DNA of 32,000 bases from Candidatus Saccharimonadota bacterium (GCF_047555085.1 NZ_CP180230.1:360001-392000), one strand, 5' to 3'; numbered from the stretch's first letter, positions 1 to 32,000 are shown. A program made the numbers and translations. The notes: generated by a model not told the origin, from the letters alone.

Positions 1-60
1 AAGTATACCTGAGCTGACGTCAAGTATTCCCAGTAGATCAGGCCTGAATATTTCGCCCAT
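1..60 (-). CDS. 5' end of an unidentified gene running off the left edge (MGEIFRPDLLGILDVSSGIL...)
   Basis: An ATG (reverse complement of 58-60) opens a minus-strand frame that stays open to position 1. It lies 28 nt downstream of the NYN gene stop on the same strand. Only 20 codons are visible, so no family can be assigned. Confidence 0.25.
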   Translation of the reverse strand, partial: MGEIFRPDLLGILDVSSGIL

Positions 61-87
61 GGAAAAAATGTTTTCCTGTCAAGATTT

Positions 88-552
88 TTATTCCAGTTCC
101 ACAACGTGATCCGCAGCATTCTTCAATGCAGTCGAAAATCCTGGCTCCATACCCATAACGACTGTCTCTTTCCCATGCTCCTTAGCCTTCTGTATCACAG
201 GAAGGAAATCTGTATCACGAGTCACAAGTGCGATAACATCGATATCATCGTTGAAAACTGCTTCAACAGCATTTACCGCCATGTAAACATCTACGTCACT
301 TTCCTTGGCCTTTTCTCCACCTAGACCCAGCTCAGCTTCAAATCCCTGAGATATTATAGCTTCAATAAGCTTATCGGAAGCGTACTGGTTCAGAAATACT
401 TTTCCAACCTTGATATTTCCAAACTCTCCGGTCTTCTCTCTTAAATGATCAAGATCTAGATCAAACTCCTTTCTAACAACGTTAGGCCCATCAACAAAGA
501 TAGCAACGTTCTTCCCTCTACTAACAGAATCCTTTATTTTAGATAAAACCAT
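88..552 (-). CDS. NYN / LabA-like (DUF88) PIN-fold nuclease domain protein
   Basis: 154-aa ORF. The '[10 protein letters not shown]' and '[14 protein letters not shown]' Asp-containing motifs and the size match the NYN/LabA-like family. Confidence 0.7.
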
Positions 553-770
553 GAAACAATATTTCTCCCACAGCCTTTTTTATCTCACCGCTGAAATAAT
601 TGGACAAAAATTTTCTCACGTTATCTGAAAAACTTAAATCAAATGTCGACAAAGAGAAGTCTATGGAGGCCTACCAGTATTCACATGATGTAATAGGGTG
701 TCGAGGCCTCCTTGTATTTCCAAACTTTTCCGAAAAACAGAGAATTTTCCGACGAGAGAGGTATACATAA

Positions 771-1430
771 ATGGTGTTGAAGGCTTACTGGCCTCTGGAT
801 GAAACATCCGGAAGCACAGCATACGACGCCAGAAACAGCAATAATGGAAGTTTGAATGGCGGAGTAACGCAGAACGTCTCAGGCCTCTTCGGTTCCGGAG
901 CATACAGTTTCGATGGCACTGATGACTATGTGGATGCTGGAAGCAACTCGGATATTGAGCCATCTACAGTCTCTATTTCAGCCTGGATAAAAACCAGTGG
1001 AGGTCATGGAGGCACTTATCCCAGGTATGCGGGAAACAACTGGAGCTTTGCAGGATACAATATCCAGCCATCTTCAGGTTCAGTGGCCATGGAAATAGGG
1101 GATGGTTCCAGTTCTAATACTCTCTCAGCATCGACCGGTATAGAAGACGGATCATGGCATCAAGTAACAGCAACTTACAGAGGAACAGATAATTCCTGGG
1201 CGATATATGTAGATGCTGTACAGGAAAACTCTGGGACGTCCAGCTACTCTCTTGCCTACGGAGGAAACCCTTTCATTATAGGTGCCAATCCATCAAAAAG
1301 CGACGGATTTGCAAATGCAGATATCTGCAATATCAGAATATATGATCATGTGTTAACAGAGCAGGAAGTAAGCTACCTGTACTCTGTAGGACAGAGAGGG
1401 CTACATACCTCAGACATTAGAACTCTGTAA
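771..1430 (+). CDS. Standalone LamG (Laminin_G_3 / concanavalin A-like) domain protein, no signal peptide
   Basis: 219 aa. It starts directly with 'YWPLDETSGSTAYD', then 'FDGTDDYVDAG', and ends 'IRIYDHVLTEQEVSYLYSVGQRGL'. These are typical LamG jelly-roll boundary motifs. It is a clear paralog of 18127..18792. Confidence 0.8.
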   Translation: MVLKAYWPLDETSGSTAYDARNSNNGSLNGGVTQNVSGLFGSGAYSFDGTDDYVDAGSNSDIEPSTVSISAWIKTSGGHGGTYPRYAGNNWSFAGYNIQPSSGSVAMEIGDGSSSNTLSASTGIEDGSWHQVTATYRGTDNSWAIYVDAVQENSGTSSYSLAYGGNPFIIGANPSKSDGFANADICNIRIYDHVLTEQEVSYLYSVGQRGLHTSDIRTL

Positions 1431-1446
1431 AAAAGAATATTTTTTA
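1428..1446. terminator. Candidate bidirectional oligo-T terminator between convergent genes (TAAAAAAGAATATTTTTTA)
   Basis: An A-run/T-run near-palindrome spans both stop codons, giving an oligo-T tract on each strand. Archaeal RNA polymerase terminates at oligo-T. Confidence 0.4.
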
Positions 1447-2184
1447 CCTGAAAATTTTTCTTGCGTTCACGGTAGAGGCCTCTACAACTTTCTCGTAATT
1501 CGTCTCCTTGATCTCGGCGATTTTCTCAGCACTCTCCTTTACGTTGACAGGTTCGTTCCGTTCTCCACGGTACAGGAACGGCGAATCCGTTTCAAGAAGC
1601 AGTTTTTCAAGGCCTATTCTATCAACGATTTCCTGAACACGGTTCGAATAAAGTACCTGTGTCGTAACGCCGATGAAGTATCCTTTCTCCACAGCTTCCT
1701 CCGCCAGTTCTGGTGCTCCGTTGAAACAGTGAAGCATAACATCTTTGAGATCGTATTCTCCCAGTATCTCAACTGTTCTCTTCTCGGCATCTCTTGTATG
1801 CAGTACGACAGGCTTTCCAAGCTCCTCCGCCAGATCCAGCATCTCCCGGAAAACTTTCTCCTGCTCATCCCTACTTTCGCTCTCCGTTACGTGATGATGG
1901 TCAAGGCCTATCTCGCCTATTGCCACAGGATCATTTTCACGGATCTGCTTTTTTATCCTGTCTATTTCATCGAAACTTTCCGTATACGTCGGATGAAGGC
2001 CTAGATTAGCAACTACAAATCCATCAGTCTCACTTTCAAGTTCCAGAGATTTTTCGTTATGTTCAAAATTACTTCCGGCATTCACCACGAAATCCAGTAC
2101 GTCTTTCGCTCTTCCGATCACTTCGTCTCGATCCTCATCAAAATTTTCAAAGTCCAGATGGCAGTGCGAATCTACAGGCCTCAT
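1444..2184 (-). CDS. tatD: TatD-family metal-dependent hydrolase / DNase
   Basis: 246 aa. N-terminal 'DSHCHLDF', then 'EIGLDHH', 'VVLHTRDA', 'HCFNG' and 'LLETDSPF' match the TatD metal-ligand motifs in the correct order. Confidence 0.9.
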   Translation of the reverse strand: MRPVDSHCHLDFENFDEDRDEVIGRAKDVLDFVVNAGSNFEHNEKSLELESETDGFVVANLGLHPTYTESFDEIDRIKKQIRENDPVAIGEIGLDHHHVTESESRDEQEKVFREMLDLAEELGKPVVLHTRDAEKRTVEILGEYDLKDVMLHCFNGAPELAEEAVEKGYFIGVTTQVLYSNRVQEIVDRIGLEKLLLETDSPFLYRGERNEPVNVKESAEKIAEIKETNYEKVVEASTVNARKIFR

Positions 2185-6968: not shown

Positions 6969-8396
6969 CTATCTGTTATTCAGTATAATTCTATTTACAG
7001 GCCTGAATCTTGCACCTGACTTGAGAACAATTTCATCAGCTGTAAAGTTGATATCGCCTCTCCAGAGGCCTGAGATAATGCTTCTGTTATTTACAGTGAT
7101 ATCTGATGCGCCGCCAGCTGACTTGAGTGCGGAGGATGGTTTTGACTCAAAGATAGAGTTTATCTCAAATGATCTGGCGCTTATCTGATGTACATTTGAT
7201 GATATGCATTCGTTTTTCGGTCCACGTCTGTCACAGAGACCTCCGTCAGGTTCTGATTGGAGAAGATATGTTCCTTCGTCATTCAGATTGTTTCCAGCTA
7301 TGAACTGTGTTATCACGGGTTTATTCGTGCTTACATTGTATGTGTGAGGTGGCGAAGTAGAGAACTGTTTGAATCCGTTTTTATCCATTTCATATGTTGT
7401 ACCGTCCACCTCGAGCTTCGTATCGTTTTCAGTCGCCATTGCAACAAGGTTAGGGCTATGTCTTCCGGCTCCGATCATCTTGTTTTCTCCTGGCTCTACT
7501 CGCGTCATGGAGAAGTCGTCACCCATGTAACTTATGCTGTTCCCTCCTTCAGTATCTCCTATCCAAACGGATATCGTGTCGTTAGCGACGAAGCGAAATT
7601 CTTCAACCCCGGTACCGCTTTGATACACGCGTGAGTCCTCATCTATGTTATGGCTCTGATATATAGAGGATCCTGTCTCTGTTAGACTGTAGACATCTAC
7701 GTTAACCGGTTTACCATATGAAAAAATAGCATAAGCACCTCTCTCCCAGTTACTCGTTGTACCGTAAAATTCCTGGCCCTTCATTCCTCCATTCGCTGAT
7801 GGGGCCATCTCAAAAGCGTTTCCAGCAGTATTCTCTATAATTAACTTTTTATCTGACTCAACCTCGTAACTGTTCCCTCCTGTAAGAGTCATCTTTTGGA
7901 ATCTATTGGAGTTAACAGTAAAGCTCGAAACTGTTCCATCGTTAAGATTTGTCACATCTACCGAGGCAGTTTCTTCAGGAGCGTAAAATCTTGTAGCGCC
8001 ATCGTTATTCGATTCTATCGCCTGAAAAACAAATCTATCCCCTGAAAAACTTCCATTGACGTCAGGATAGTAAACCTTTGCCGCCCAGCCATCATCTCCA
8101 AGATATGGAGCCACATCATTGCTACACTGCAACCTGATGAAGTCTCCTGGCGCAGTCTCCTGAGTCCATATATCTCCTTTACCTAAAGTGGTAGAGGCCA
8201 GCTCACTGTTACTTGAAGCATCGTAAAGACTACAGGATGTGGAGTCATATATCCCTGTAACCTCAAGACTGATCTGATCATCGCTGCTACCTGTCTGCGG
8301 ATCCCAGCCATAGTATTCCTCTCCGATAACAGGAGCAACTGCGAACGCAATCAGAATGAACAAAGTAAGAAGTTTCTTCCAATACTCCATAAACAC
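6969..8396 (-). CDS. Secreted protein of unknown function (signal peptide, beta-rich, Asn/Ser/Thr/Gly-rich)
   Basis: 475 aa. 'MFMEYWKKLLTLFILIAFAVAPVIGEE' is a hydrophobic signal sequence. There is no C-terminal TM segment and no recognisable sorting signal. Confidence 0.6.
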   Translation of the reverse strand: MFMEYWKKLLTLFILIAFAVAPVIGEEYYGWDPQTGSSDDQISLEVTGIYDSTSCSLYDASSNSELASTTLGKGDIWTQETAPGDFIRLQCSNDVAPYLGDDGWAAKVYYPDVNGSFSGDRFVFQAIESNNDGATRFYAPEETASVDVTNLNDGTVSSFTVNSNRFQKMTLTGGNSYEVESDKKLIIENTAGNAFEMAPSANGGMKGQEFYGTTSNWERGAYAIFSYGKPVNVDVYSLTETGSSIYQSHNIDEDSRVYQSGTGVEEFRFVANDTISVWIGDTEGGNSISYMGDDFSMTRVEPGENKMIGAGRHSPNLVAMATENDTKLEVDGTTYEMDKNGFKQFSTSPPHTYNVSTNKPVITQFIAGNNLNDEGTYLLQSEPDGGLCDRRGPKNECISSNVHQISARSFEINSIFESKPSSALKSAGGASDITVNNRSIISGLWRGDINFTADEIVLKSGARFRPVNRIILNNR

Positions 8397-8473: not shown

Positions 8474-11067
8474 CAGTGTATGATGACGATCGTGTTCTCT
8501 GTCTCTATCATCTCGCCTTCGCCGGTGTATGTTCGTTCCTGTCGTACTTCGAACATCTCAGGCTTCAGGTGTTCGCCTGCTACTTCAAGACGGCCATCGT
8601 CGATCATGTAATCGTTGTCCTCTAAAGCCGCTTCTATCTCAGAGACTTTATCTCCGTACTTAGGCCCTGCCTTCGAGTAATTGAGCTTGATCTCGATAAT
8701 CTTGTTCTCTGTCTCAGGCTCGCCTTCAAGCTGTTCAAGACTGTTGACGTGCATAACTTCCTTGACAGCGCTTTCAAGGCCTGAAATGTTGCCGTAGACT
8801 TCCGCTCTCTCGATATCCTCGTTCAGCGACATCTGATGCTCTGTCTTGAACTTTCTCAATGCTGATACAACTTCCATAGCGTTCTCACCGGCCTCTTTGT
8901 CCGCCTCTATACCTGAGGCCTCTGGCCAGTCGCTCCTGTGGATCGATGTATTTTCATACAGTTCGTTCCATATCTCTTCTGTCGTATGTGACAGCATCGG
9001 AGCGAACAATTTGAGGAAAGTTCTGTGGGCCTTGACAAGTGTGTACTGAGCGGATTTGTTCTTTTCGTCGTCGAGACGCTGCTTGGCGATCTCCAGATAA
9101 TCGCTGCAGAACATGTTGAAGAATCTCTCCCGCAGACGATCGCGGGCAAGTGAGAACTCGTAGTTCTCGAATTTTTCAGTGGTGAACTCGACTAGTTCAT
9201 CCATCTCGGCTAGGAGCCAGCGATCGATCTCATCGAGATCTTCTTCCTCGACTTCGATATCTTTGTGAGGAGTCAGATCGTTGATAAGCTTTGATGCGTT
9301 CCACAGCTTCCTCATCAGCTTCTCTCCCTCGACAAGATCTTTTTCCTTCAGTGCCAGGTCGTCGCCTACCTTGGTGCGTGCACCCCAGTACCGTGCGGCA
9401 TCGACAGGGAAGTCTTCAAGGACTTCTTCAGGAGTTGTGACGTTTCCAACGCTTTTACTCATCTTCTCCCTGTTCTCATCCAGTACGAATCCATGGATCA
9501 TCGTATCCTTGAATGGAACTTCGCCGGTGTGTTCAACACATTTTACAACGGTATGGAATAGCCAGAAACTGATGATGTCGTGGGCCTGATAGCGTGCATC
9601 CATCTGGTAAAGCTCCGGTCTTCCAAGCTCGTACTCTTCCTCTTCAGCGTTCCAGCCCCAGTCAGCATTGATCAGCGGTGTCAAACTTGAAGTTGCCCAG
9701 GTGTCCAGGACATCTTCTTCAGGCTCAAACTCTTCTGCACCACATTCTGGACATTCATCGACAGGAGCTTCGTCCTGGATAGGATCAACAGGTAAATCAG
9801 TTTTTTCAGCGATTATCTCCTGCTCACATTCACTGCAGTACCAGACAGGCAGAGGAATACCGGAGTCTCTCTGCCGTGAGATACACCAGTCCCACTGAAG
9901 GCCTTCAATCCAGTGCTCGTACCGTGTAAACATTTTCTCGGGGAACCAGTCCATTTCTCTACCGGCTTCCAGATATTTTTCCTTGTGATCAAGAACTTCG
10001 ATGTACCACTGTTTCTTGACAAGGAACTCTATCGGCTCATCACATCTTTCATGAACCTGGACAGTATGCTCTATCTCCCAGCGATCCATCAAAAATCCTG
10101 ATTCATCCAGTTCCTCGACGATCTCTTCTCTGGCCTCTGTTCTGTCAAGACCTTCAAACTTTCCGGCCAGTTCAGTCATCTCCCCGGATTCATCCATGGC
10201 AACTCTCAAGTCGAGATCGTGGGCCTGGTACCACTCGATATCTGTCTGATCTCCGAAAGTACAGCACATAACAACGCCGGTGCCTGTCTCCATGTCGACT
10301 CTTTCATCTTCGATTATAGGGACTTCGTAGTCAAAGATCGGGACTTTTGCCTTTTCTCCGACAAGATTGTTGTTCGCCTCGTCTTCAGGATGAACGATGA
10401 TCGCGACACATGCCGGAAGCAGTTCGGGCCTTGTAGTCGATATCATCACTGATCCGTTGCCCGTCGCTAATGGGAACTCGATATCGTTGAAATGCGAGTC
10501 TTCCTCCATATCCTCTGTCTCGACCTGGCTGATAGCTGTCTCACATTCGGGACACCAGATCGCAGGAGCCTTCTGACGGTACTCACGCTCCTGCTCGTAC
10601 AGATCTATGAACGAAAGCTGAGAGATCTTCTGAACTCTCGGCTCGATAGTCTTGTAAGTATTGTTCCAGTCCATGGAGAAGGCGAACTGCTGCATGGCAT
10701 CTGTGAAATCGTTCTCGTATTCCTCACAGACCTCTCTACACTTCTCCTGGAACTCTCTTCGTGTAAAGTTCTGATGGCGGATTCCAAGCTCTCTCTCAGT
10801 TAAACGCTCGGATGCAATACCGTTGTCATCGTATCCAAACGGATAGTATACATCGTAGCCCTGCATTCTCTTGAAACGAGCCATGAAATCCATCAACGTG
10901 TTTCCATAGGTATGTCCGAAGTGAAGGCTTCCGGAAACCGTCGGAGGAGGTGTATCGATAGAGAAAACATCTTTATCCTCATCCCCCTCGTACTCGTAAG
11001 TCCCGTTTTCAACCCATTTTTCACTCCATTTTTCCTCAAAATCTTCCGGCGTATAATCTCCTAACAT
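8473..11067 (-). CDS. valS: Valyl-tRNA synthetase
   Basis: 864 aa. 'PPPTVSGSLHFGHTYG' is the HIGH region, 'KMSKSVGN' is the KMSKS motif, and there is a CP1 editing insertion. Size and N-terminus are typical of archaeal ValRS. Confidence 0.93.
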   Translation of the reverse strand: MLGDYTPEDFEEKWSEKWVENGTYEYEGDEDKDVFSIDTPPPTVSGSLHFGHTYGNTLMDFMARFKRMQGYDVYYPFGYDDNGIASERLTERELGIRHQNFTRREFQEKCREVCEEYENDFTDAMQQFAFSMDWNNTYKTIEPRVQKISQLSFIDLYEQEREYRQKAPAIWCPECETAISQVETEDMEEDSHFNDIEFPLATGNGSVMISTTRPELLPACVAIIVHPEDEANNNLVGEKAKVPIFDYEVPIIEDERVDMETGTGVVMCCTFGDQTDIEWYQAHDLDLRVAMDESGEMTELAGKFEGLDRTEAREEIVEELDESGFLMDRWEIEHTVQVHERCDEPIEFLVKKQWYIEVLDHKEKYLEAGREMDWFPEKMFTRYEHWIEGLQWDWCISRQRDSGIPLPVWYCSECEQEIIAEKTDLPVDPIQDEAPVDECPECGAEEFEPEEDVLDTWATSSLTPLINADWGWNAEEEEYELGRPELYQMDARYQAHDIISFWLFHTVVKCVEHTGEVPFKDTMIHGFVLDENREKMSKSVGNVTTPEEVLEDFPVDAARYWGARTKVGDDLALKEKDLVEGEKLMRKLWNASKLINDLTPHKDIEVEEEDLDEIDRWLLAEMDELVEFTTEKFENYEFSLARDRLRERFFNMFCSDYLEIAKQRLDDEKNKSAQYTLVKAHRTFLKLFAPMLSHTTEEIWNELYENTSIHRSDWPEASGIEADKEAGENAMEVVSALRKFKTEHQMSLNEDIERAEVYGNISGLESAVKEVMHVNSLEQLEGEPETENKIIEIKLNYSKAGPKYGDKVSEIEAALEDNDYMIDDGRLEVAGEHLKPEMFEVRQERTYTGEGEMIETENTIVIIH

Positions 11068-12710: not shown

Positions 12711-13583
12711 ATGGAACAGAACATACTGGAAAAAATCAGGAATGGAGAAATCCAGGCACATGAGGCAGAGGAAGGAATCGTCAGCGACACGTATATCGCA
12801 GAAAACTTTGTTGTACAGGCCTCTGCAGGATTTGACGATAAGATCAGGATAAACCGTTTCATGATCGATAAGCTGGGTGAAAACGGAGTACCTGTTCCAG
12901 AAGTCATAGATTACAGCGAGGACCCGCTTTTCGTAGCATTCAACAGACTTGAAGGCCTCTCACTCGATAACAGAGACACGTTCACCGAGGAACAATATCT
13001 TGAGGCCGTCAGAAATGCTGGCGAGGCCCTGGCACTTGTACACCAGCAGGAAGGCCTTGGATATGGAAATCCTGATCCGGAACATGGTTTCGAGCAGGGA
13101 GTATTCGATGACTGGAGAAGTTTCATAGACTCCGATATCCAGGGAACTCTGGATTATGTTGACAGCGATAGATTCAGGCCTGTAGTGGAGAAAGCCGATG
13201 AACTGCTGGATATAGATGAATTACCGGAGTCTCCGGATAGCAGGATCTTGCACATGGATTATACTCCGGACAATGTTTTCGTTGCCGATGATCTTTCTGT
13301 AACAGTTCTGGATTTCGATGGAGCAATTTACGGAGATCCGGATTTCGATCTGATGTATGCAGAGTTGATAATGTCGAAATACGGCGATCAAACTCTGGGA
13401 AACTTTATCGATGGATATACAGGCCTCAGAGATGCCGAATTGAGGCCTGAACTGGAGAGAAACTACACTGCACTGGCAGTACTGAGAGATGCCAGAGGAG
13501 GAGAATGGTGTCTGCAAAACGACAGGGACGTTGATCTGGATGAATGGGCCAGAGGCCTGGAAAATACTGTTGAAGGCCTCTAG
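12711..13583 (+). CDS. Aminoglycoside/choline-kinase-like phosphotransferase (APH family)
   Basis: 'ILHMDYTPDNVFV' is the catalytic-loop HxDxxxxN motif and 'VLDFDGAIYGDPDFDL' is the DFD metal site. The ATG at 12711 is preferred over the GTG at 12702. Confidence 0.75.
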   Translation: MEQNILEKIRNGEIQAHEAEEGIVSDTYIAENFVVQASAGFDDKIRINRFMIDKLGENGVPVPEVIDYSEDPLFVAFNRLEGLSLDNRDTFTEEQYLEAVRNAGEALALVHQQEGLGYGNPDPEHGFEQGVFDDWRSFIDSDIQGTLDYVDSDRFRPVVEKADELLDIDELPESPDSRILHMDYTPDNVFVADDLSVTVLDFDGAIYGDPDFDLMYAELIMSKYGDQTLGNFIDGYTGLRDAELRPELERNYTALAVLRDARGGEWCLQNDRDVDLDEWARGLENTVEGL

Positions 13584-17255: not shown

Positions 17256-17279
17256 AGAGGCCTTGAAAAAGAGGCCTCT
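17256..17279 (+). terminator. Hairpin from two AGGCCT copies followed by a T-rich tract
   Basis: AGAGGCCT-TGAAAAAG-AGGCCTCT forms an 8-bp stem. It is followed by GAGGTTTTATTTTT and lies 44 nt downstream of the 16721..17212 stop. Confidence 0.5.
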
Positions 17280-17813: not shown

Positions 17814-18085
17814 GGGTAGGCTGGGCGGTTCGGGGCCGCTTGTAACCCTGAAATCCTCGTTATGCAGTGGAGCCGAAAACCAGTGGAAGATGTTTCTTTC
17901 AATGGTTCGGCCCAGTGACGTGCTGTGGACGATCCGTCCTCCGGGATGTCGCTGGCTGTCAACCGGGTCAGGCCTTGACGGGAGCAGCCCTAAGCAGTCG
18001 GTGGCATGTTCGGAGGGTGGCGGATCCGAGGTATGTCGCTGGATTCACCGGCTGTTGAAGGGCATCGACCGCTGGGAACCCGCTA
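17814..18085 (+). ncRNA. ffs: Signal recognition particle RNA (archaeal 7S/SRP RNA)
   Basis: This is a local GC-rich island. The 5' domain 'GGGCGGTTCGGGGCCGCTTGTAACCC' and the helix-8 signature 'GGGTCAGGCC..GGGAGCAGCCCTAAGCAG' resemble conserved SRP RNA elements. The 5' GGGT...GGCGGT can pair with the 3' ACCGCT...ACCC. A TAATTTT tract follows. Ends are approximate. Confidence 0.75.
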
Positions 18086-18126
18086 ATTTTACTTTTCCAG
18101 AAAAACTTTCTAGAGGCCTCTAAATT

Positions 18127-19595: not shown

Positions 19596-19623
19596 GAGGC
19601 CTTAACTTATTTTTTGAGGCCTC
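19596..19623. repeat. Intergenic stem-loop from two GAGGCCT(C) copies
   Basis: GAGGCCT (19596-19602) pairs with AGGCCTC (19617-19623) across a 14-nt T-rich loop. It sits in the divergent spacer between the LamG operon and traB-like gene. Confidence 0.5.
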
Positions 19624-21022: not shown

Positions 21023-21185
21023 TCTGATTTTTCCTGGTTTTTATTCAAATGGTTTTTCTATACTGTGTTTGCCGGTTTTTTACTTGTGTTTGAACTGTTT
21101 TGGGTTGTATTTCCGGCTTTTGATCGGTGTGTTCGGCTTCCTGTGAGGCGTTGAGTTTTTATTCCTGTAACTGTATTCTTTGTTT

Positions 21186-22323: not shown

Positions 22324-22374
22324 AGGAGTTCTTCTGAAGCTGTGACAATAAGAAAAAGTATATGTGGTGAATTT

Positions 22375-22599
22375 TTAGCGGAGCAGGTCTTCTACAGGAT
22401 CGTCGTCGTCTCCTCGTTCATCATCTACAGGTCCGCCGATAGTTCCAGGCTCCTGATCAGGTAGCTCATCTTCAAATCCTTCTTCGTCGGCCTGGATCTC
22501 CTGTGCCTCTCTTTCGATCCTTTCACGCATATCGTCTTCGTCCAGCTCCTCGTCTTCGTCGTCGAAGTCATCCGGTTCAAATTCGTTTGGTTCTTCCAT
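22375..22599 (-). CDS. Hyper-acidic small protein (74 aa, 37 Asp/Glu)
   Basis: The ORF is divergent from the HerA-like ATPase gene. Composition was counted directly from the translation: 37 D/E and 5 R. Confidence 0.5.
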   Translation of the reverse strand: MEEPNEFEPDDFDDEDEELDEDDMRERIEREAQEIQADEEGFEDELPDQEPGTIGGPVDDERGDDDDPVEDLLR

Positions 22600-22743
22600 T
22601 TTTTAGTCGCCTCCGAGAGGGTACTGAATAAGTTTCAATCACCTGCATGTTTATAAAGGCATCGAAGCTTGTTTTTCTGTTCAGGTAGCAAACACATATT
22701 TTCTACAGTTGGATTTATTATCCGGCGTCTATCAACAGTCTTT

Positions 22744-24006
22744 ATGCCGAAGATCAGTGTGGGAAGAAGTGAGGATGACAAAGAGGAGTACGGCCTCAAA
22801 GGTACAGGAGTGATCGGTAAACACCTTGTAGGAGAGAACGAAGAGGCCCATACAGCGAATCCTATACATTTTGATCTGGCGAAGCCTCACGTCATGGGGG
22901 TCTTCGGAAAGAGAGGAACCGGAAAATCTTACTCTCTGGGAACTATCGCAGAGGAGATACAGACAGCGGATATCTCACAGAACTTATCTACTATAATGAT
23001 TGATCCCATGGGGATCTACTGGTCTATGAAGAGGCCTAACGAGAAAGATGTTACTGTACTTGATCAGTGGGATATGAAGCCGGAGGCCTTCGATGCACAG
23101 GTGTATATTCCGAAGGGGAAGGCGAAGGAGTTCGATGAACAGGAGATGCCGTACGATGATACTTTCACGTTGAATCCTGCGCAGTTGACGGCCGAGGAAT
23201 GGAGGATGGCATTCGGACTGGAGCAGAACTCCTCGATGAGTATTCTTCTGGAGAGAGCTGTACAGGAACTGAGCGAACAGTACGGCGATAACTACCGTGT
23301 TGAGCATATACTTGAGGCCCTGGAAAAATTTGATTTCGACAAGAAAACTGTCAGAGGCCTGGAGAATCGTTTCATGAATGCAGAGGACTGGGGGATCTTT
23401 GACGAGGAATCTTCGCTTGACAAGCTTACAGAGCGAGAGGAGCTGTCCATCGTCGATGTATCCGTCTTCGGCCAGATGTCTGGAGGAACAAAGGTACAGG
23501 CCCTGATTGTCGGCATACTTGGGAAAAGAATACTTAGAAGGAGGATGGCTGCTCGAAGATTGGAGGAGCTGGATGAGATGCAGGGTCTTGATCAGAACGA
23601 AATGCCCATAGTGTGGATGCTAATCGATGAGGCTCACGAGTTCCTCCCCAGTGACGGAGAGACACCTGCTTCTGCTCCGCTTCTACGATGGGTGAAGATC
23701 GGTAGAGAGCCGGGGGTATCGCTTGTGCTGTGTACCCAGCAGCCGGCAAAACTTCATCCGAATGCTCTTTCCCAGTGCGATGTACTTCTATCGCATCGCT
23801 TGACCGCACAGCAGGATATCGATTCTCTGGGAGAGATCATGCAGACGTACATGCGTTATGATCTGAAACATTACATTGAGGCCTTGCCGGACAGGAAAGG
23901 AACAGGCCTTATACTGGACGATAACTCGGAAAGGATCTATCCGATTCAGATGAGGCCTCGAAAGTCGTGGCACGCCGGAGGAACGCCTGACGCATTCGAT
24001 GAATGA
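22744..24006 (+). CDS. HerA/FtsK-superfamily ATPase (DUF87-like), without a HAS-barrel-sized N-terminal region
   Basis: 'GVFGKRGTGKSYSLG' is Walker A and 'VWMLIDEAHEFLP' is the HerA-type Walker B. The start was moved to 'MPKISVGR' at 22744. Only about 55 aa precede Walker A. Confidence 0.75.
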   Translation: MPKISVGRSEDDKEEYGLKGTGVIGKHLVGENEEAHTANPIHFDLAKPHVMGVFGKRGTGKSYSLGTIAEEIQTADISQNLSTIMIDPMGIYWSMKRPNEKDVTVLDQWDMKPEAFDAQVYIPKGKAKEFDEQEMPYDDTFTLNPAQLTAEEWRMAFGLEQNSSMSILLERAVQELSEQYGDNYRVEHILEALEKFDFDKKTVRGLENRFMNAEDWGIFDEESSLDKLTEREELSIVDVSVFGQMSGGTKVQALIVGILGKRILRRRMAARRLEELDEMQGLDQNEMPIVWMLIDEAHEFLPSDGETPASAPLLRWVKIGREPGVSLVLCTQQPAKLHPNALSQCDVLLSHRLTAQQDIDSLGEIMQTYMRYDLKHYIEALPDRKGTGLILDDNSERIYPIQMRPRKSWHAGGTPDAFDE

Positions 24007-24533
24007 TATCTATGAATATAGCCAGCTTCATCAATCCGGAGATAGTAGAGCGCGTACTGGTTTTTATAAAAACTCCTGTACAGAACACAGAGATTCTTCC
24101 GAACGTTCTTCCACTGATACTTGGACTTATCGTCATGGAGCTTTACTTCGGAAAGCACAAGAAAGAATCGCTTGGATGGAACACAGCTGAAGGGAACGCG
24201 ATAATCTGGCTTTCGACAGGCCTCTCGCTTTACTTTACACCGGCTCTTGGACAGATGGAGACTTATGCCGTCTACGCATTGATAGGAATAGGATTTTTCG
24301 TCGCCTACATGGACTTCTTCCATAAATGGCCTTCCACAGTAGCATTCGTCATCTCATCTTCCGCACTCGTTTACACACTGGCATATACACTTGTTATAGT
24401 GATAAAAGCTCCTTTACCGATGAATATGGTGACTTATCAGGCTGCCGGAATATTCTTTGTAGGAGTCAACATACTGTTCAAATTTATACAGGGCCTTGAG
24501 ACAGACAGTGATCCGTTTGGAACAGATTTCTGA
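24003..24533 (+). CDS. Polytopic membrane protein (~4-5 TM), translationally coupled to the HerA-like ATPase
   Basis: The ATG at 24003 overlaps the ATPase TGA (ATGA). 176 aa with several long hydrophobic helices and an acidic C-terminal tail. Confidence 0.6.
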   Translation: MISMNIASFINPEIVERVLVFIKTPVQNTEILPNVLPLILGLIVMELYFGKHKKESLGWNTAEGNAIIWLSTGLSLYFTPALGQMETYAVYALIGIGFFVAYMDFFHKWPSTVAFVISSSALVYTLAYTLVIVIKAPLPMNMVTYQAAGIFFVGVNILFKFIQGLETDSDPFGTDF

Positions 24534-24606: not shown

Positions 24607-26832
24607 ATGACGGTTCTCAGGAAAGACAAGATAGAATCCAGGGCCTATCAGGAAGTTATCGCGGCCTCAGCCAGTGACAGAAACACTCTTGTTGTTCTAC
24701 CGACAGGCCTCGGAAAGACTATTATAGCAGTCATGGTGGCCTCGATAAAGTACAGTGAAGATTCCAAGATCCTGATGCTTGCGCCGACAAAGCCTCTTGT
24801 AGAACAGCACAAGAAAACGTTCCAGGAGTTTCTGGATGTAGATGAAGACCAGATGCAGGTGATGACCGGTGAGATAAGGCCTGACAAACGTTACGAGCTC
24901 TGGGAGGAGAAAAATATATTTTTTGCAACACCACAGGTAGTGGAAAACGATCTGATCTCGGCAGAAGTCCCTGTAGAGGCCTTCTCATTGGTTATATTCG
25001 ATGAGGCTCACAGGGCGACAGGAGAGTACAGCTACGTATTCATCAACGAGAAGATGAACACGCAGAATCTGGCTTTGACGGCTTCGCCGGGAGGAAGCAA
25101 GGAAAAAATAATGGAGGTATCGGAAAATCTCGGGATAGAAAACTTTGAGGTCCGTACGGAAGACGATCCCGACGTAGAACCGTACATACAGGAAAGGGAG
25201 GTCAACTGGCTTAACGTTGAACTTGATGACAGATTCGAGGAGGCCCGGAACAAGATGGAGGCCTCAAAGAGAACACAGCTGAAGAAACTGAAGAAGCTGG
25301 GCCAGCTTGACTCCACGTCCGATGTCAACAAGACTGATTTACTGAAGTTAAGAGGAGAGATAAGCTCGAAGCTTTCAAAGAAAGATGATCCGCAGCTTTA
25401 CTCCGCTATCTCCCGTGTCGCCACAGCACTGAAGATTTCACAGGCTATCGAACTTCTTGAGACACAGGGAGTAAGCCAGGCCTATGAATACGTACAGGGC
25501 CTGGAGAACGATGATTCAAAAGCGGCTTCACGTGTTTTACAGGACGATGATATGCAGAGAGCGATCAACTTGATCACATATCTGAAAAAAGAGGATGTGG
25601 AGCATCCGAAGACTGAGAAAGTAGTGGATATACTTGACGGATTAGAAGACAGTCAGAAGGCACTTGTTTTCACGGAGTACCGTTCCTCGGTAGAGGATAT
25701 AACACGTAAACTTGAAGAGGAGGACTTCAGTGCCGCAGAGTTCGTCGGCCAGTCAGGAGACACAGGAATGAGTCAGACAGAACAGATAGAGCTTCTGGAG
25801 GAGTTCAGCGACGGAGATCATCAGGTAGTCGTCTCCACAAGCATCGGAGAGGAAGGCCTCGATATACCGGCCGTTGACTACGTTATATTCTACGAGCCGG
25901 TGCCTTCATCTATAAGAGATATTCAGAGAATGGGGAGAACAGGCAGACAGGAATCCGGAGAAGTATTCGTCCTTATAGCAGAAAATACAAGGGATGAAGG
26001 ATACTACTGGAGTGCACACCACAAGAAAAAGAAGATGAACAAAGTGCTCCAGGAGCTGAAGGAAGAAGGCCTTGAGGATACAGGACAGAGCACTCTGGAA
26101 GGATACAGCTCATCCAAGACGACTTCAAAAAAGGAGAAAAATTCTGAGGCCTCCACAAAATCTGAAAAGTCCGGTAAAGATGATGAAGATAAATTTGATA
26201 GTTCAGAGCTTACTATATACGCTGATGATCGTGAAAACTCCGTTGCAAAGAATCTCTCCCGTATGGATACAGTAGTCAAGAAGCAGCGGCTGGATGTAGC
26301 AGACTTTCTTGTATCGGATCGTACAGCAGTCGAGAGAAAGGAGGCGGAGGACTTTGTCGACTCTGTTCTTGATTCACGGCTTTTCGAGCAAGTTCAATCC
26401 CTGCAGCAGTTTGAGAGGCCTGTGATAATTGTTGAAGGTGATGATCTATACAGTCACAGGGATATCCATCCGAATGCAATCAGAGGTGCGCTTGCAACTC
26501 TTGCAATCGACTACGGGATGCCGATAATATGGTCTGCGGATGAGAAAGAGACCTCGAAAATTTTAGAGGCCCTGGCAAAGAGAGAGCAGGAGGATAAAGA
26601 TAGAGAAGTCTCCATCAGAGGAGAAAAATCTCCGAAGTCGGATAAGCAGCTTCAGGAGTTCGTTGTAGCAGGCCTTCCAGGAGTAAATACGAAGATCGCT
26701 GAGAGGATTCTCAACGAGTTTGGCAGTATACAGAAAGTTGTAAATGCTTCCGAGGAGGAACTCAAGTCAGTGGAGGGAATTGGAGATAAAAAGGCCTCCA
26801 CGATACGTGATCTCCTGACTCGTGAATACTGA
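24607..26832 (+). CDS. hef: Hef: helicase plus ERCC4/XPF-type nuclease for fork-structured DNA
   Basis: 741 aa. 'VLPTGLGKT', 'FDEAHRATG' and 'QRMGRTGR' are SF2 helicase motifs. The C-terminal 'VERKEAEDF' is the ERCC4 ERK motif. Tandem HhH elements follow ('GLPGVNTKIAERIL...VEGIGDKKA'). Confidence 0.92.
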   Translation: MTVLRKDKIESRAYQEVIAASASDRNTLVVLPTGLGKTIIAVMVASIKYSEDSKILMLAPTKPLVEQHKKTFQEFLDVDEDQMQVMTGEIRPDKRYELWEEKNIFFATPQVVENDLISAEVPVEAFSLVIFDEAHRATGEYSYVFINEKMNTQNLALTASPGGSKEKIMEVSENLGIENFEVRTEDDPDVEPYIQEREVNWLNVELDDRFEEARNKMEASKRTQLKKLKKLGQLDSTSDVNKTDLLKLRGEISSKLSKKDDPQLYSAISRVATALKISQAIELLETQGVSQAYEYVQGLENDDSKAASRVLQDDDMQRAINLITYLKKEDVEHPKTEKVVDILDGLEDSQKALVFTEYRSSVEDITRKLEEEDFSAAEFVGQSGDTGMSQTEQIELLEEFSDGDHQVVVSTSIGEEGLDIPAVDYVIFYEPVPSSIRDIQRMGRTGRQESGEVFVLIAENTRDEGYYWSAHHKKKKMNKVLQELKEEGLEDTGQSTLEGYSSSKTTSKKEKNSEASTKSEKSGKDDEDKFDSSELTIYADDRENSVAKNLSRMDTVVKKQRLDVADFLVSDRTAVERKEAEDFVDSVLDSRLFEQVQSLQQFERPVIIVEGDDLYSHRDIHPNAIRGALATLAIDYGMPIIWSADEKETSKILEALAKREQEDKDREVSIRGEKSPKSDKQLQEFVVAGLPGVNTKIAERILNEFGSIQKVVNASEEELKSVEGIGDKKASTIRDLLTREY

Positions 26833-27851
26833 TGAAACCTCTGATACTTGGTGTTGATCCCGGAAGCACTTCTGCTATAGCTCTTGTAGATTTCAAAGGA
26901 GATCTGGTCCATGTTGAAAGCGGGAAGAACTTTCCGCCGAGAGAAATGATTTCTAAAGTAGTTGAACAGGGAAAACCTGTTATAGTGGCCTCTGACAAGG
27001 AGAAATTTCCTTCCACAGTGGATAAAATCGCCAGATCGTTCGGTGCAGTAAAATATGAACTGGATGAGGATCTTGATGCTGAAAGGAAGAGGGAACTGGG
27101 CGAGGGAGATAACTCGCATGAACAGGATGCCGTTGCAGCATCAATAAACGCTTACAGAGGCCTGCGTGATAAAATAGATAAGATAGAAGAGATATCAAGT
27201 GAAAGAACTGAAGATAAAGGCACAGTAGCACTGAAGTACTTCAGAGATAATCTCAGGCCTCCACAGCAGGATGATGAGGAAGAGGCCTCTGAGGAAGAGG
27301 AACGTTCCAGGCCTGTTGAACCGGCTCCTGCTGTAGAAAGCTTGATGGGGGAGAATCAGAGGCTGGAGGGCAAGGTTGAAAACCTTGAGGAACAGGTGAA
27401 CGATCTCAAGGACAAAATTGAAGAGCAAAGAGATGAGGCCTCGCGCTGGAGAAGCAAGTACGATCGCATGAGGACTGAGAAAAGGCAGGAGATCATGAAG
27501 GAGCGTGAGTTGAGCAAGAAAAACGCCGAGATCAGGGAAAAAGAGGATAAAATATCTGAACTGGAGGACAGCCTGGAAAAATCACGTATAAGAGAGGACA
27601 GATACGTCAAGGCCCTGAAATTAATCGAAAACGGCGGGAAGATCCTTCCGATTTTTGAAAGAACGGATGAAAGGCCTGAAGTCTCAGTTACGCGTTCACA
27701 GGATCTGAAGAAAGAGCTCGTGGAGAGCGGTGAGCGTGTTTTCCATGTAGATGATCTTGAAGGAGTCGAATTACTTGACAGATTTGTTACAGAGGAGGAG
27801 CCTGAGGCTGATCTCAAGAAAATGATGGAGGAGTACAGAGATGCGAGATAG
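26832..27851 (+). CDS. DUF460 (COG2433) protein: RuvC/YqgF-like RNase H-fold N-domain plus long coiled coil
   Basis: 'ILGVDPGSTSAIALVDFKGDL' is an RNase H-fold first-strand Asp motif and 'VIVASDK' follows. The C-terminal half is an acidic coiled coil. The ATG shares one base with the hef TGA (TGATG). Confidence 0.7.
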   Translation: MKPLILGVDPGSTSAIALVDFKGDLVHVESGKNFPPREMISKVVEQGKPVIVASDKEKFPSTVDKIARSFGAVKYELDEDLDAERKRELGEGDNSHEQDAVAASINAYRGLRDKIDKIEEISSERTEDKGTVALKYFRDNLRPPQQDDEEEASEEEERSRPVEPAPAVESLMGENQRLEGKVENLEEQVNDLKDKIEEQRDEASRWRSKYDRMRTEKRQEIMKERELSKKNAEIREKEDKISELEDSLEKSRIREDRYVKALKLIENGGKILPIFERTDERPEVSVTRSQDLKKELVESGERVFHVDDLEGVELLDRFVTEEEPEADLKKMMEEYRDAR

Positions 27852-28424: not shown

Positions 28425-29240
28425 TCAGTAAATCGTGTAGAAAGCTGCCACACCGAGGCCTGTAAGATCTGTTATAACTACTGAAAGAAGGAATACAGGC
28501 ACCAGAGGCACGCCTGTCCGTACTTTGATGGTATCTTCTTCGTATTCTTCGATCTCCTCTTCTGTAAGGCCTTTGATTTTTCCGTCGAATCCCTGATCCG
28601 GTGCAGGTACTTCGTTGAAGGCGTCTTCAGTCTTTATTTCTCTAACAAGGTATCTGTCCTCGACAAGTTTCACCCATTCGTACAGGAAGATCAGTGACGT
28701 CATCACAGCGAAGAATACTGCACCATTGACGTTGTTGGACCATAGAAATACGCTGAAAAGGCCTGTTCCTGTGATGAATGCTGCTATAAATCTCTGTCTT
28801 TTTTTCAGTGATTTCTGGAACTCTCTGAGGCTTCCTTCGGCCTCGATGAATTTTTTGGCGGCGTATATCAGTGTTACTGCGACTGCGGCGATCATGAAGT
28901 TGAAAACGAGATCCAGTATGTACGTTACGGAGGCCTGGCCTGTGGCTGTCAAGGGTACTGTGAATCCCATCATTGTGAGTATCATGGCGTCTGCTCCTCC
29001 CCAGAATCCTTTGTAGTATGCTGCCCAGCCGTAGATTCCTGCCACGAGGCCTCCGATGAGGCATACTGTGATTGCAGTCATAGAGCCTGTGGTGTAGGAC
29101 TGTGCTGCATGGAGTAACAGGCCTCCGATGATTCCTGTGACGGCGAATTCGTCGGGAACGTTGTGGTCGTTGAAAAGGTCGAAAAGCGAGTCCACAAAAA
29201 GTACTGCGAAAGCCAGTATGTGTGAGAAAACTACGAACAT
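28425..29240 (-). CDS. A24-family prepilin/preflagellin-type signal peptidase (PibD/FlaK/EppA-like)
   Basis: 271 aa and polytopic. There is an N-terminal Asp region ('VDSLFDLFNDHNVPDEF') and a second catalytic-type motif 'FWGGADAMIL' (GxGD-like). Confidence 0.7.
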   Translation of the reverse strand: MFVVFSHILAFAVLFVDSLFDLFNDHNVPDEFAVTGIIGGLLLHAAQSYTTGSMTAITVCLIGGLVAGIYGWAAYYKGFWGGADAMILTMMGFTVPLTATGQASVTYILDLVFNFMIAAVAVTLIYAAKKFIEAEGSLREFQKSLKKRQRFIAAFITGTGLFSVFLWSNNVNGAVFFAVMTSLIFLYEWVKLVEDRYLVREIKTEDAFNEVPAPDQGFDGKIKGLTEEEIEEYEEDTIKVRTGVPLVPVFLLSVVITDLTGLGVAAFYTIY

Positions 29241-30126: not shown

Positions 30127-30138
30127 AGGAGATTCTCT

Positions 30139-30537
30139 ATGGATCAGCAGAAGATGCAGCAGTACCAGCAACTTCAGCAGCAGGTAGAGGAGATGCAGGG
30201 ATCCATGCAGCAGCTTGAACAGCGTATAAACGATGTAGAAGACGCTGTTGAAGGAGTTAGAGGTCTTGAAGAAGTTGAGGAAGGTGAAGAGATCCTTGCC
30301 TCAATAGGTTCCGGTGCTTTCGCCATCGCCGAGCTGAAGAGCAGTGAGGAAGTTGTCACGAATATCGGAGGAGAGGCCTACGAAAGAAGAAAGCTGGATG
30401 ATGCAGAAGACCTGCTTCAGCGTCACGTAGATGAGCTTGAAAATACTAAAAGCGAGCTTGAAGAGGATATAACTGAGATGCAGCAGCAACTTCAGCAGAT
30501 TCAGGCAGAGATCCAGCAGCAGAGACAGGGAGAGTAA
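30139..30537 (+). CDS. pfdA: Prefoldin alpha subunit
   Basis: 132 aa. Two Gln/Glu-rich coiled-coil arms flank a central beta-hairpin region ('ILASIGSGAFAIAELKSSEEVVTNIGGEAY'). Confidence 0.85.
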   Translation: MDQQKMQQYQQLQQQVEEMQGSMQQLEQRINDVEDAVEGVRGLEEVEEGEEILASIGSGAFAIAELKSSEEVVTNIGGEAYERRKLDDAEDLLQRHVDELENTKSELEEDITEMQQQLQQIQAEIQQQRQGE

Positions 30538-30542
30538 ATTCC

Positions 30543-31436
30543 ATGCTTAAAGGCCTGAAAGACTCCGTAAAAGATCTTTCTGAAAACGTCAAGTCAGCGG
30601 TAGGAGAGAAGGAACTGGATGAAGACACTCTTGAGCCGCTGCTGGAAGATTTCAGGCTTAAACTTCTGAAGAACAATGTTTCACTTGATGTAGCTGAAGA
30701 TATAGAGAAAGGCCTCAAAGACAATCTAATAGATACAAAGGTGAAGAGAGGGAAAGTCGAGGAAAAAGTCGAGGAAGCATTCCGTGAGAAACTTGAGGAG
30801 CTTCTTGACGACACATTTAACTTCGAGGAAGCTCTTGAAGAGGCCTCTGAGCCACCTGTTGTTTTCATGATAGGTTTCAATGGCTCGGGTAAGACAACTA
30901 CGGCTGCAAAGCTTGCTGATTACCTGCAGGAAGATCTTGGTGAAGAAGTTGTCCTTGGAGCAGGAGATACATTTAGAGCAGCTTCTATAGAGCAGTTAGA
31001 GGAGCACGGCAATAATCTAGGAGTTAAAGTTGTTTCTCATGAGTACGAGTCGGATCCAGCGGCTGTAGCGTACGATGCTGTGGAGCATGCCGACAAGCAC
31101 GGTAAAGTTGCCATAGTTGATACAGCAGGTAGAAGCCACAGCGACAGAAATCTCATGGATGAGCTGCAGAAGATGATTGATGTCAACGAGCCGGATATAA
31201 CGTTCCTTGTTGTGGATGCGCTGGCTGGAAACGATATACTGGAACAGGCAGAGGCCTATGAGGGCATGTTCGATGCAATAATCGCTACAAAGATGGATAT
31301 CGATGAGAAAGGCGGTGGCATCGTCTCGATAAGTCAGAGATCAGGTAAGCCAGTGGCTTTCCTAGGTACAGGCCAGGACTACAACGAACTTGAAGACTTC
31401 AACAAGGAAGAATTCATCGACAGGATAATGGACTGA
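30543..31436 (+). CDS. ftsY: Signal recognition particle receptor FtsY
   Basis: 297 aa. It carries the SRP-GTPase motifs 'GFNGSGKTTTAAKLA' (G1), 'DTAGR' (G3) and 'TKMD' (G4), plus an acidic N-domain. Confidence 0.93.
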   Translation: MLKGLKDSVKDLSENVKSAVGEKELDEDTLEPLLEDFRLKLLKNNVSLDVAEDIEKGLKDNLIDTKVKRGKVEEKVEEAFREKLEELLDDTFNFEEALEEASEPPVVFMIGFNGSGKTTTAAKLADYLQEDLGEEVVLGAGDTFRAASIEQLEEHGNNLGVKVVSHEYESDPAAVAYDAVEHADKHGKVAIVDTAGRSHSDRNLMDELQKMIDVNEPDITFLVVDALAGNDILEQAEAYEGMFDAIIATKMDIDEKGGGIVSISQRSGKPVAFLGTGQDYNELEDFNKEEFIDRIMD

Positions 31437-31496
31437 GGCCTTGAAGTTAAATTTTTAGGCTAGTTCTGACAATTTTTCATAGAGGCAACTATTTTT

Positions 31497-32000
31497 ATGG
31501 CACAGATCGGTACTCTGAAGTTGAAATCTGATTCGGGTGTTGTTGAGGTACCGGTCTTCGAGCCGGGAGATGTAGGCCTTCCCGTGGTACGTGTACAGAC
31601 TGATTCAGGTACAGGAGCCTTGAACGTAGTTGATACAGGTGATGCAGAGCTTGATCAGCTTCGTGTACAGACATCTCAAGGAGTAAAGGCAGTCAGTACC
31701 ACGATAAACACCGTCTTCAGTTACGAGGATGATTTCACTACAGACACTACAGATAACTACTCTATAGAGCTTTCAAGCAGCAGTCCTTCATACTCGTATA
31801 GTTCATCAAACGATGCGATATACTTTGACACTACTGACAACGACCATGCCTACGTAAGGAAAACCTTCTCAAACATGTCTTCCAGCGGCTATGTCAAGAT
31901 AACAAACAATATCACAGGCGACGATCCCTACGGAGAAACAGTAGGCCTCTCAATCTACAACAGTTCAACAGGAGACCGTTACAGAGCAACTAACAGAGAC
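31497..32000 (+). CDS. Hypothetical protein, 3'-truncated by the window edge
   Basis: The ATG at 31497 opens a frame that stays open for 168 codons to the window end. The N-terminus carries a repeated '(V/L)RVQT(D/S)xG' motif, followed by Ser/Thr/Asn/Asp-rich sequence. It is absent from the ORF track because no stop falls inside the window. Confidence 0.5.
   Translation, partial: MAQIGTLKLKSDSGVVEVPVFEPGDVGLPVVRVQTDSGTGALNVVDTGDAELDQLRVQTSQGVKAVSTTINTVFSYEDDFTTDTTDNYSIELSSSSPSYSYSSSNDAIYFDTTDNDHAYVRKTFSNMSSSGYVKITNNITGDDPYGETVGLSIYNSSTGDRYRATNRD

Follow-up and report, generated by a model that had tools for sequence, protein, structure and literature searches.

The DNA uptake sequences (DUS) of Neisseria and the uptake signal sequences (USS) of Pasteurellaceae are non-palindromic, 9-12 nt long, and served by a known receptor and competence machinery. 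In E. coli, the Dcm/Vsr pair enriches its CCWGG target and depletes CTWGG through biased T:G repair, an effect that is small (<2-fold) and restricted to the methylated position. Restriction targets are usually avoided, not accumulated. Closer to the case described here are the highly iterated palindromes (HIPs) of cyanobacteria, of which HIP1 (GCGATCGC) is the best known: Elhai observed that a HIP contains the site of a resident methyltransferase and that its variants are concentrated at its ends, ascribed this end bias in HIP1 to a methyltransferase site in its interior, and put forward a ratchet driven by methylation-dependent mismatch repair (PMC4390886). Some three decades after the description of HIP1, a 2026 preprint still treats the origin and function of HIPs as open. 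Here we analyze the hexamer AGGCCT in the 32,000-bp stretch of DNA shown above, which we call the window and which is, by its sequence relationships, the DNA of a nanohaloarchaeon (DPANN). The nearest relatives of its valyl-tRNA synthetase (ValRS), at 82-90% identity, are from nanohaloarchaeal metagenome-assembled genomes (MAGs) including Ca. Nanosalina J07AB43. In our best reading, AGGCCT is by its behavior a genuine HIP, the archaeal (nanohaloarchaeal) counterpart of the cyanobacterial sequences.

The initial annotation of this DNA had named HIP1 among the closest analogues, and each sequence-level property of the HIP class that we tested was found in AGGCCT. Like HIP1 and the alternate HIPs of cyanobacteria, it is a short GC-rich palindrome in tens-of-fold excess (Elhai 2015, PMC4390886; Xu et al. 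2018, PMC5861425), here 21-fold and at more than one copy per kb, scattered over coding DNA, in all phases, and non-coding DNA alike and not part of any larger repeat. Like HIP1 it is conserved above background, present or absent by lineage, and surrounded by one-letter variants concentrated at its first and last positions, and it contains targets of common methyltransferases (GGCC/AGGCCT here, CGATCG/GATC in HIP1). It differs in occurring in Archaea (DPANN) rather than cyanobacteria, in being a hexamer rather than an octamer, and in being denser (1.5-4.2/kb, against about 1/kb for HIP1; Elhai, PMC4390886). Its carriers are host-dependent ectosymbionts, whereas symbiotic cyanobacteria tend to lose HIP1 (Elhai, PMC4390886), and HIPs have an associated methyltransferase, whereas none was found for AGGCCT in the loci examined. 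HIP1 proper is ruled out, as the sequence differs from GCGATCGC and the organism is a nanohaloarchaeon.

The other systems are less similar. AGGCCT shares with DUS and USS its over-representation in coding and non-coding DNA, its rarity in constrained genes, its lineage-specific "dialects" and its paired copies forming terminator-like hairpins; by form it is not a DUS or USS, being a palindromic hexamer with essentially no information beyond ±1. A possible likeness to Dcm/Vsr is that AGGTCT/AGACCT is the most depleted neighbor in the window, but the excess here is ~20-fold and all six positions are maintained. AGGCCT, which contains the HaeIII-type GGCC, is also the recognition sequence of the StuI-type restriction-modification system of Alcanivorax borkumensis SK2, where its methylation is documented (PMC12128166); that genome has 1674 copies (PMC12128166), by our own estimate ~0.5/kb and ~2-fold over composition, which is not hyper-abundant.

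Abundance, codon context and form of AGGCCT

The window (GC 45.7%) contains exactly 134 copies of AGGCCT (4.19/kb, or 1 per 239 bp), close to the roughly 130 of the initial annotation. This is the most frequent of all 4,096 hexamers, and the runners-up, GGCCTC (74) and GAGGCC (69), are its own overlaps. Markov chains of order 0, 1, 2 and 3 predict 6.4, 7.2, 23.1 and 58.4 copies, respectively, and the excess over base composition is 21-fold. We rejected the order-4 expectation (125.6) as a circular null: its agreement with the count is uninformative because the pentamers AGGCC (163) and GGCCT (171), already seven-fold enriched by the same motif, hold the signal. GGATCC, a palindrome of identical composition estimated earlier at about 8 copies, occurs 10 times, and all remaining hexamer palindromes are at most about 4-fold over composition. 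The 222 GGCC tetramers are distributed among flank classes, with 134 inside AGGCCT, 66 with one matching flank and 22 with neither, where composition predicts about 6, 34 and 46.

The excess is not a product of codon or amino-acid usage but a dispersed excess of a palindrome at the DNA level. Our ORF-based gene calls gave 36 open reading frames (ORFs), with 28.6 kb coding, 3.0 kb intergenic, one tRNA-Cys and the signal recognition particle (SRP) RNA. Shuffling synonymous codons, with the proteins and overall codon usage kept, yielded 15.7±3.6 AGGCCT (maximum 27 in 300 trials), so that the 114 (113-114) observed in coding sequence are a 7.3-fold excess; a codon-order shuffle predicts 8.0±2.7. 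The copies lie in genes of either orientation and in all three phases: 20 in phase 0 (AGG CCT, Arg-Pro), 39 in phase 1 (xAG GCC Txx, mostly EAS/EAY/EAF) and 54 in phase 2 (xxA GGC CTx, x-Gly-Leu). Four independent enriched genomes, namely those of the window, L004, L006 and L168, share this pattern of three phases with a 6-9-fold excess over the synonymous shuffle. CTCGAG in loci from Natrialbaceae served as a negative control: it is 10-15-fold over composition, yet ~90% of its copies are in phase 0 (CTC GAG) and it exceeds the shuffle just 2.1-2.4-fold. The initial annotation had held that protein coding does not explain AGGCCT, and had named two outcomes that would overturn this: a total no more than about twice a Markov or codon-aware expectation, or an enrichment that codon and dipeptide usage account for in full, with one dominant phase and no intergenic excess. 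The control behaves in that way and AGGCCT does not, and its intergenic copies and a sister clade that has a proteome of the same kind but no excess (see below) point in the same direction.

Codon choice is strongly displaced wherever the encoded peptide permits the motif. A glycine between ..A and CT.. is encoded by GGC in 54 of 60 cases (elsewhere GGC accounts for ~25% and GGA is preferred), an alanine between.AG and T.. by GCC in 40 of 42 (~29% elsewhere), and Arg-Pro by AGG CCT in 20 of 26. Overall, AGGCCT fills 113 of the 156 synonymously permissive contexts in the window (72%), as compared with 69-84% in L003, L004 and L010 and 4-25% in non-enriched relatives. More than half of the 43 unfilled contexts (23) are one transition away (AGGCCC 14, AGGTCT 5, GGGCCT 4), and the 18 with AGGCCC or GGGCCT deviate at an end position. 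Arg-Pro and [EQK]-Ala-[SFYCWL] peptides are themselves enriched ~1.5-2 times in proteins encoded by the window relative to the orthologues of non-enriched relatives, which suggests that AGGCCT has also shaped protein sequence.

Intergenic DNA (3.0 kb, 39% GC) is the densest compartment, with 19-20 copies (6.3/kb) where 0.40 are expected; the 18 one-mismatch variants together number 10 there, against 8.3 expected. Within genes, density drops with protein constraint, from 6-10/kb in poorly conserved genes to 1.2/kb in the ValRS gene and 0.8/kb in that of the release factor aRF1. One 345-bp stretch counted as intergenic (Table 1) has no AGGCCT and resembles a putative, very acidic minus-strand ORF.

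The unit is the hexamer itself. Position -1 is G at 44% of sites and T at 9%, with the mirror pattern at +1 (C 44%), and beyond ±1 the flank logo is flat, with essentially no information. The octamer GAGGCCTC, of which AGGCCT had been called the core, occurs 31 times where independent flanks predict about 26, so it is ruled out as a distinct unit. Over 133 kb of enriched DNA, 12- and 14-mer contexts recur 5 times at most, and an interspersed element (REP- or MITE-like) is likewise ruled out, since no conserved unit is longer than AGGCCT. Spacing is near exponential (mean 240 bp, coefficient of variation (CV) 0.93); distances under 25 bp are slightly underrepresented, and the CV rejects periodic spacing.

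Among the one-mismatch relatives, which the initial annotation had described as frequent, GGGCCT/AGGCCC indeed is (39 in the window, observed/expected ratio (O/E) 3.6), but CGGCCT/AGGCCG is at expectation (11 over both strands, O/E 1.0). In enriched relative to non-enriched loci, variants at the outer positions are 1.86-fold more frequent (GGGCCT/AGGCCC 4.4-fold) and those at inner positions 0.80-0.89-fold. AGGTCT/AGACCT, the product of inner-C deamination, is the window's most depleted neighbor (O/E 0.85, against 2.2 in seven non-enriched relatives), although in the larger locus set its ratio is just 0.76, with AGGCTT/AAGCCT at 1.1. Three close pairs of AGGCCT in the 32 kb form hairpins with 8-10-bp stems beside T-runs at gene ends (Table 1). 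The one after the ValRS stop codon resembles an intrinsic terminator, and such close pairs are reminiscent of paired uptake sequences.

Other palindromes show separate trends: TCCGGA (25 copies, 3.9-fold over composition) and AGATCT (16) are in moderate excess in AGGCCT-rich and AGGCCT-poor nanohaloarchaea alike, a general feature of their own, and GGGCCC and GCTAGC have no copies in the window.

Distribution among nanohaloarchaea and conservation of sites

For comparative data we used one neighborhood per genome, that around the ValRS gene, and single-gene neighbor-joining trees. Across 41 nanohaloarchaeal loci (about 0.6 Mb), AGGCCT density is sharply bimodal: 18 are enriched (1.5-4.2/kb, pooled O/E 16) and 23 are not (0-0.53/kb, pooled O/E 0.98). 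Pooled enriched loci are 14-fold above the non-enriched ones, and the window itself has 4.19/kb against 0.21/kb in its non-enriched relatives. Haloarchaeal DNA of the host type (43 loci) has 0.12/kb (O/E 0.36). In the ValRS tree the enriched loci form several clades (the window with L160, L164 and L003; L004, a Nanohalobium sp.; L006 (M3_22) with L182 and L008; and a large clade, L010...L018), while the non-enriched comprise the Nanosalina clade (sister to that of the window), L007/L013/L009, L011 and every basal lineage. On this tree, one early gain with three losses would be similarly parsimonious to about four independent gains. A bimodal distribution that follows clades is what one would expect if a single gene were either present or absent.

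In the enriched clades, sites of AGGCCT are kept 2-3 times better than other hexamers at equal divergence. Retention is 45-68% against 24% for other hexamers between the window and L160, 50-64% against 21% between the window and L003, 73-93% against 35% for L010-L197, and 86-100% against 62% for L197-L191. In comparisons with non-enriched relatives the relation is reversed: AGGCCT sites are conserved at 3-7% against a background of 10-17%, and they lie at less conserved amino-acid positions (identity 0.50-0.53 vs 0.64-0.76). Parallel filling of the same permissive contexts contributes to the apparent conservation. At the synonymous glycine site in the ValRS gene listed in Table 1, for instance, 6 of 7 aligned enriched relatives (with the window, four clades) have AGGCCT, L018 having AGGTCT; 6 of 12 aligned non-enriched genomes have AGGACT, with the preferred glycine codon GGA, and 2 (L007 and L013) have AGGCCT. 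Since synonymous positions flip in parallel, shared positions need not mean common ancestry, and we rejected them as proof of it.

These comparisons show a force on AGGCCT that is lineage-specific and currently active, works directly on the sequence of duplex DNA throughout the region, favors the motif at all six positions, and is weakest where proteins are most constrained. The codon odds ratios of 33 and 64 (about a 30-60-fold shift in odds per opportunity), together with the intergenic ratio of exact to variant sites, would correspond very roughly to a scaled advantage of 3.5-4 (ln 33-64) per site.

Some loci in the set deserve separate mention. L009 (JBLGBK010000003.1), labeled "MAG: Colwellia polaris", has 43% GC, a nanohaloarchaeal ValRS (70% identity), aRF1, and neighbors in the order of the window, and appears to be a nanohaloarchaeal contig assigned to the wrong bin. 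In Natrialbaceae-type loci (L019, L024/L184, L030, L189, L201), and not in other Halobacteria, CTCGAG exceeds composition 7-15-fold, reaching 5/kb. GATATC occurs 30 times in 22.6 kb of L037 (a Halobacteriales MAG), 14-fold over composition and 5.3-fold over the synonymous shuffle, mostly in phase 0 (GAT ATC). A three-site pattern scan of IMG/VR for AGGCCT-rich viruses was not productive: the matches listed were mostly tandem repeats or unrelated contigs such as L046, whose ORFs bear no nanohaloarchaeal sign.

Candidate causes of the enrichment

The palindromy of AGGCCT implies recognition of duplex DNA by a dimeric protein, and the agent would be a protein peculiar to the enriched clades that recognizes the site as a symmetric dimer. 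Most likely it would be a StuI-type (AGGCCT) or GGCC-core DNA methyltransferase coupled to repair or gene conversion. Mismatches in and beside a site would be resolved toward the sequence that can be methylated, along the lines of the ratchet that Elhai proposed for HIPs, and the dense mark might then serve as a self-label. An AGGCCT-specific methylating restriction-modification system exists in A. borkumensis, where the enzyme methylates the outer C (PMC12128166). A cultured nanohaloarchaeon has two Dcm-like methyltransferases but only one motif seen by PacBio sequencing (PMC11001535). PacBio is poorly sensitive to m5C. The Alcanivorax enzyme, Elhai's link between HIPs and methyltransferases, and the reproduction here of end-biased variants lead us to favor a putative methyltransferase-linked bias in repair or gene conversion as the driver, which we put forward tentatively, as a serious possibility that falls short of an even chance.

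Several results weigh against this proposal. A search of the window and of ~950 ORFs from related loci (syntenic nanohaloarchaeal DNA amounting to about 0.6 Mb) revealed no gene for a DNA methyltransferase, Vsr or a restriction enzyme: Pfam and NCBIfam searches of the window ORFs returned housekeeping genes only, plus a generic small S-adenosylmethionine methyltransferase (Table 1), and motif scans of the ~950 ORFs gave chance matches only (a cysteine desulfurase, a secreted protein). AGGCTT/AAGCCT, the product of outer-C deamination, is not depleted, nor is the one-mismatch pool as a whole (481 vs 440 per 100 kb), and site gains and losses between relatives carry no clear C-to-T signature. 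Classical very-short-patch repair protects the methylated C alone, with <2-fold effects in E. coli, and so cannot by itself yield a 20-fold excess at six positions. For Nanohalobium LC1Nh and M3_22, REBASE-derived data accompanying PMC10609329 gave no information on a driver gene.

Selection or drive could also act without any link between methylation and repair. In a DUS/USS-like scheme, a receptor or recombination protein would prefer DNA with AGGCCT, and motif-bearing alleles of the same species would replace others by molecular drive. The inverse relation of density to protein constraint (in the ValRS and aRF1 genes, poorly conserved genes and intergenic DNA, as above), the clade-specific presence resembling DUS dialects, and the hairpins of close pairs near T-runs at gene ends, as formed by DUS and USS pairs, all fit such a scheme, as do a proposal that nanohaloarchaea import environmental DNA for nucleotides (PMC10266531) and a 2024 preprint in which HIP1 raises transformation efficiency in a homology- and methylation-dependent manner. 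AGGCCT per kb is 23-34 times higher in enriched genomes than in haloarchaeal DNA, a gap at which even a hexamer could tell self from non-self. Nevertheless, we consider this origin unlikely: known uptake signals are 9-12 nt, non-palindromic and present at ~1 per kb, a 6-mer offers little specificity per site, there are just 3 hairpin pairs in 32 kb, and neither natural transformation nor an uptake receptor is known in nanohaloarchaea. The only competence-type gene in the window is a weak prepilin-peptidase-like one (Table 1). A comparably low probability attaches, in our judgment, to selection acting directly on numerous binding sites for an abundant protein of the chromosome (for nucleoid packaging, segregation, or defense and self-marking), including a variant in which the factor protects symbiont DNA while imported host DNA is degraded. 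Palindromy suits a dimeric DNA-binding protein, all six positions are maintained, and sites are conserved above background; moreover, host-type DNA is AGGCCT-poor (O/E 0.36) and nanohaloarchaea are proposed to scavenge DNA. This idea, however, needs selection to be effective, in a symbiont with small populations, at thousands of sites none of which is indispensable on its own, has difficulty with whole clades that do without the excess (O/E 0.98), and has no candidate protein in the DNA examined. More doubtful again is a scenario in which AGGCCT would be the high-density self-label of a DNA-scavenging ectosymbiont: a lineage-specific reader protein, with or without methylation, would spare the chromosome or gate recombination, imported host DNA would be degraded for nucleotides, and AGGCCT would spread by the resulting drive.

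Two further explanations are less likely still. A relic or by-product of a past burst or a mutational hot-spot context, with no present maintenance, is very improbable; parallel synonymous switching does mean that shared positions need not reflect ancestry, but exact intergenic sites stand to all one-mismatch variants as 19:10, where neutral decay predicts about 1:21, and at all levels of divergence (76% to 91% identity) AGGCCT is better conserved than the background. We give hardly any credence to an RNA-level signal (AGGCCU in transcripts) or to an artefact of codon, dipeptide or base composition. Because a palindrome reads alike in transcripts from both strands, strand symmetry is by itself compatible with a role in RNA, and the proteomes of halophiles do have unusual amino-acid usage. 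Against both stand the three phases, the 7-fold excess over a codon-aware null and the high intergenic density; nothing about an RNA signal predicts palindromy, and the compositional version is already refuted by the phases, the shuffle null and a sister clade of the same lifestyle at O/E 0.98, with the CTCGAG control behaving quite differently.

Gene content of the window and significance of the motif

The genes of the window are archaeal housekeeping genes (ValRS, aRF1, Hef, TatD, dCTP deaminase, prefoldin, an FtsY-type GTPase, SRP RNA), and Table 1 lists them where they bear on the motif, together with all AGGCCT positions. The initial annotation had located copies at two stop codons, inside the SRP RNA gene and at two gene starts, and all are as it described, with ATGAAGAGGCCTCTG (MKRPL) beginning at 3164 and the TatD gene starting M-R-P. 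The first lectin gene and the gene for the 475-aa protein lack counterparts at the syntenic loci of relatives, carry only 1.4-1.5 AGGCCT per kb, and may be recent acquisitions. The adjacent DNA-repair-type genes (Table 1) are usual for archaea and have no evident tie to AGGCCT.

Table 1. AGGCCT sites and other features of the window, numbered from its first base
Feature	Position	Strand	Remark
AGGCCT, first bases	40, 667, 704, 881, 1476, 1610, 1904, 1997, 2176, 2220, 2738, 3170, 3526, 3743, 3862		
AGGCCT, first bases	4209, 4635, 4732, 5395, 5535, 5587, 6265, 6935, 6999, 7066, 8456, 8466, 8777, 8916, 9899		
AGGCCT, first bases	11079, 11281, 11413, 11427, 11661, 11819, 11898, 12118, 12282, 12528, 12817, 12953		
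AGGCCT, first bases	13052, 13176, 13421, 13443, 13553, 13574, 13755, 13816, 14036, 14127, 14410, 14447, 14976		
AGGCCT, first bases	15119, 15389, 15748, 15980, 16068, 16367, 16672, 16753, 16992, 17258, 17272, 17970		
AGGCCT, first bases	18114, 18155, 18598, 19028, 19597, 19617, 19869, 20028, 20049, 20204, 20686, 20737, 20792, 20896		
AGGCCT, first bases	21004, 21547, 21780, 21822, 22019, 22287, 23032, 23084, 23355, 23879, 23904, 23953		
AGGCCT, first bases	24218, 24535, 24705, 24877, 24977, 25259, 25478, 25854, 26067, 26147, 26416, 26670, 26792		
AGGCCT, first bases	27158, 27255, 27283, 27309, 27436, 27672, 27869, 28031, 28227, 28418, 28456, 28567, 28759, 28931		
AGGCCT, first bases	29047, 29119, 29501, 29570, 29723, 29857, 30374, 30551, 30710, 30841, 31252, 31436, 31574, 31943		
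AGGCCT in the ValRS gene	9899..9904	-	synonymous Gly codon: GGC then CT
AGGCCT at codons 2-3 (Arg-Pro) of the TatD-family gene (1444-2184)	2176..2181	-	
AGGCCT adjoining the stop codon of the APH-like kinase gene	13574..13583	+	AGGCCTCTAG
AGGCCT overlapping the stop codon of the FtsY/SRP54-type GTPase gene	31434..31441	+	TGAGGCCT
Lone AGGCCT within the archaeal SRP RNA gene (17809-18086)	17970..17975	+	
AGGCCT pair, 10 bp apart, directly 3' of the ValRS stop codon	8456..8471	-	8-bp hairpin then eight U; -16.1 kcal/mol, z = -3.1
Intergenic AGGCCT pair, hairpin	17258..17277	+	z = -2.6
AGGCCT pair in a divergent intergenic spacer	19597..19622	.	~10-bp hairpin on either strand, z = -2.2 and -3.3
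Stretch counted as intergenic	22324-22668		345 bp
Generic small S-adenosylmethionine methyltransferase gene	14445-15053		
Prepilin-peptidase-like gene	28425-29240		weak
Lectin-type and secreted-protein genes	771-1430, 6969-8396, 18127-19574		three Laminin_G_3 proteins (concanavalin-like lectin fold); one 475-aa protein, apparently secreted, without a family match
DNA-repair-type genes	21180-21665, 22669-24533, 24607-27851		weak Hjc-like resolvase match; HerA-like ATPase and small unknown partner; Hef nuclease-helicase; DUF460

In the searchable literature, in which subscription papers are only partly covered, we found no prior report of AGGCCT over-representation in nanohaloarchaea or any other archaeon. 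Highly iterated palindromes had been essentially confined to cyanobacteria until now, and AGGCCT is a second, independent instance, new in its domain of life, its shorter and denser motif, and the symbiont lifestyle of its carriers. Because enriched and non-enriched clades are interleaved, with sister clades differing 16-fold, the question of which gene co-varies with the motif becomes tractable by comparative genomics. In hypersaline metagenomes, AGGCCT density is also a sharp marker, useful when contigs are binned or checked for contamination, and the mislabeled "Colwellia" contig was spotted in this way.

For the organisms themselves, the motif comes at a measurable cost: even in a strongly reduced symbiont genome (about 1 Mb in AGGCCT carriers, e.g., 0.92 Mb for M3_22), a force at the level of the motif overrides codon preference at ~72% of opportunities, and analyses of codon usage and selection in enriched genomes must account for it. 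If AGGCCT does act as a self-label, this would be a new form of discrimination between self and non-self DNA, by enrichment of sites instead of their avoidance, and it might explain HIP-type sequences generally.

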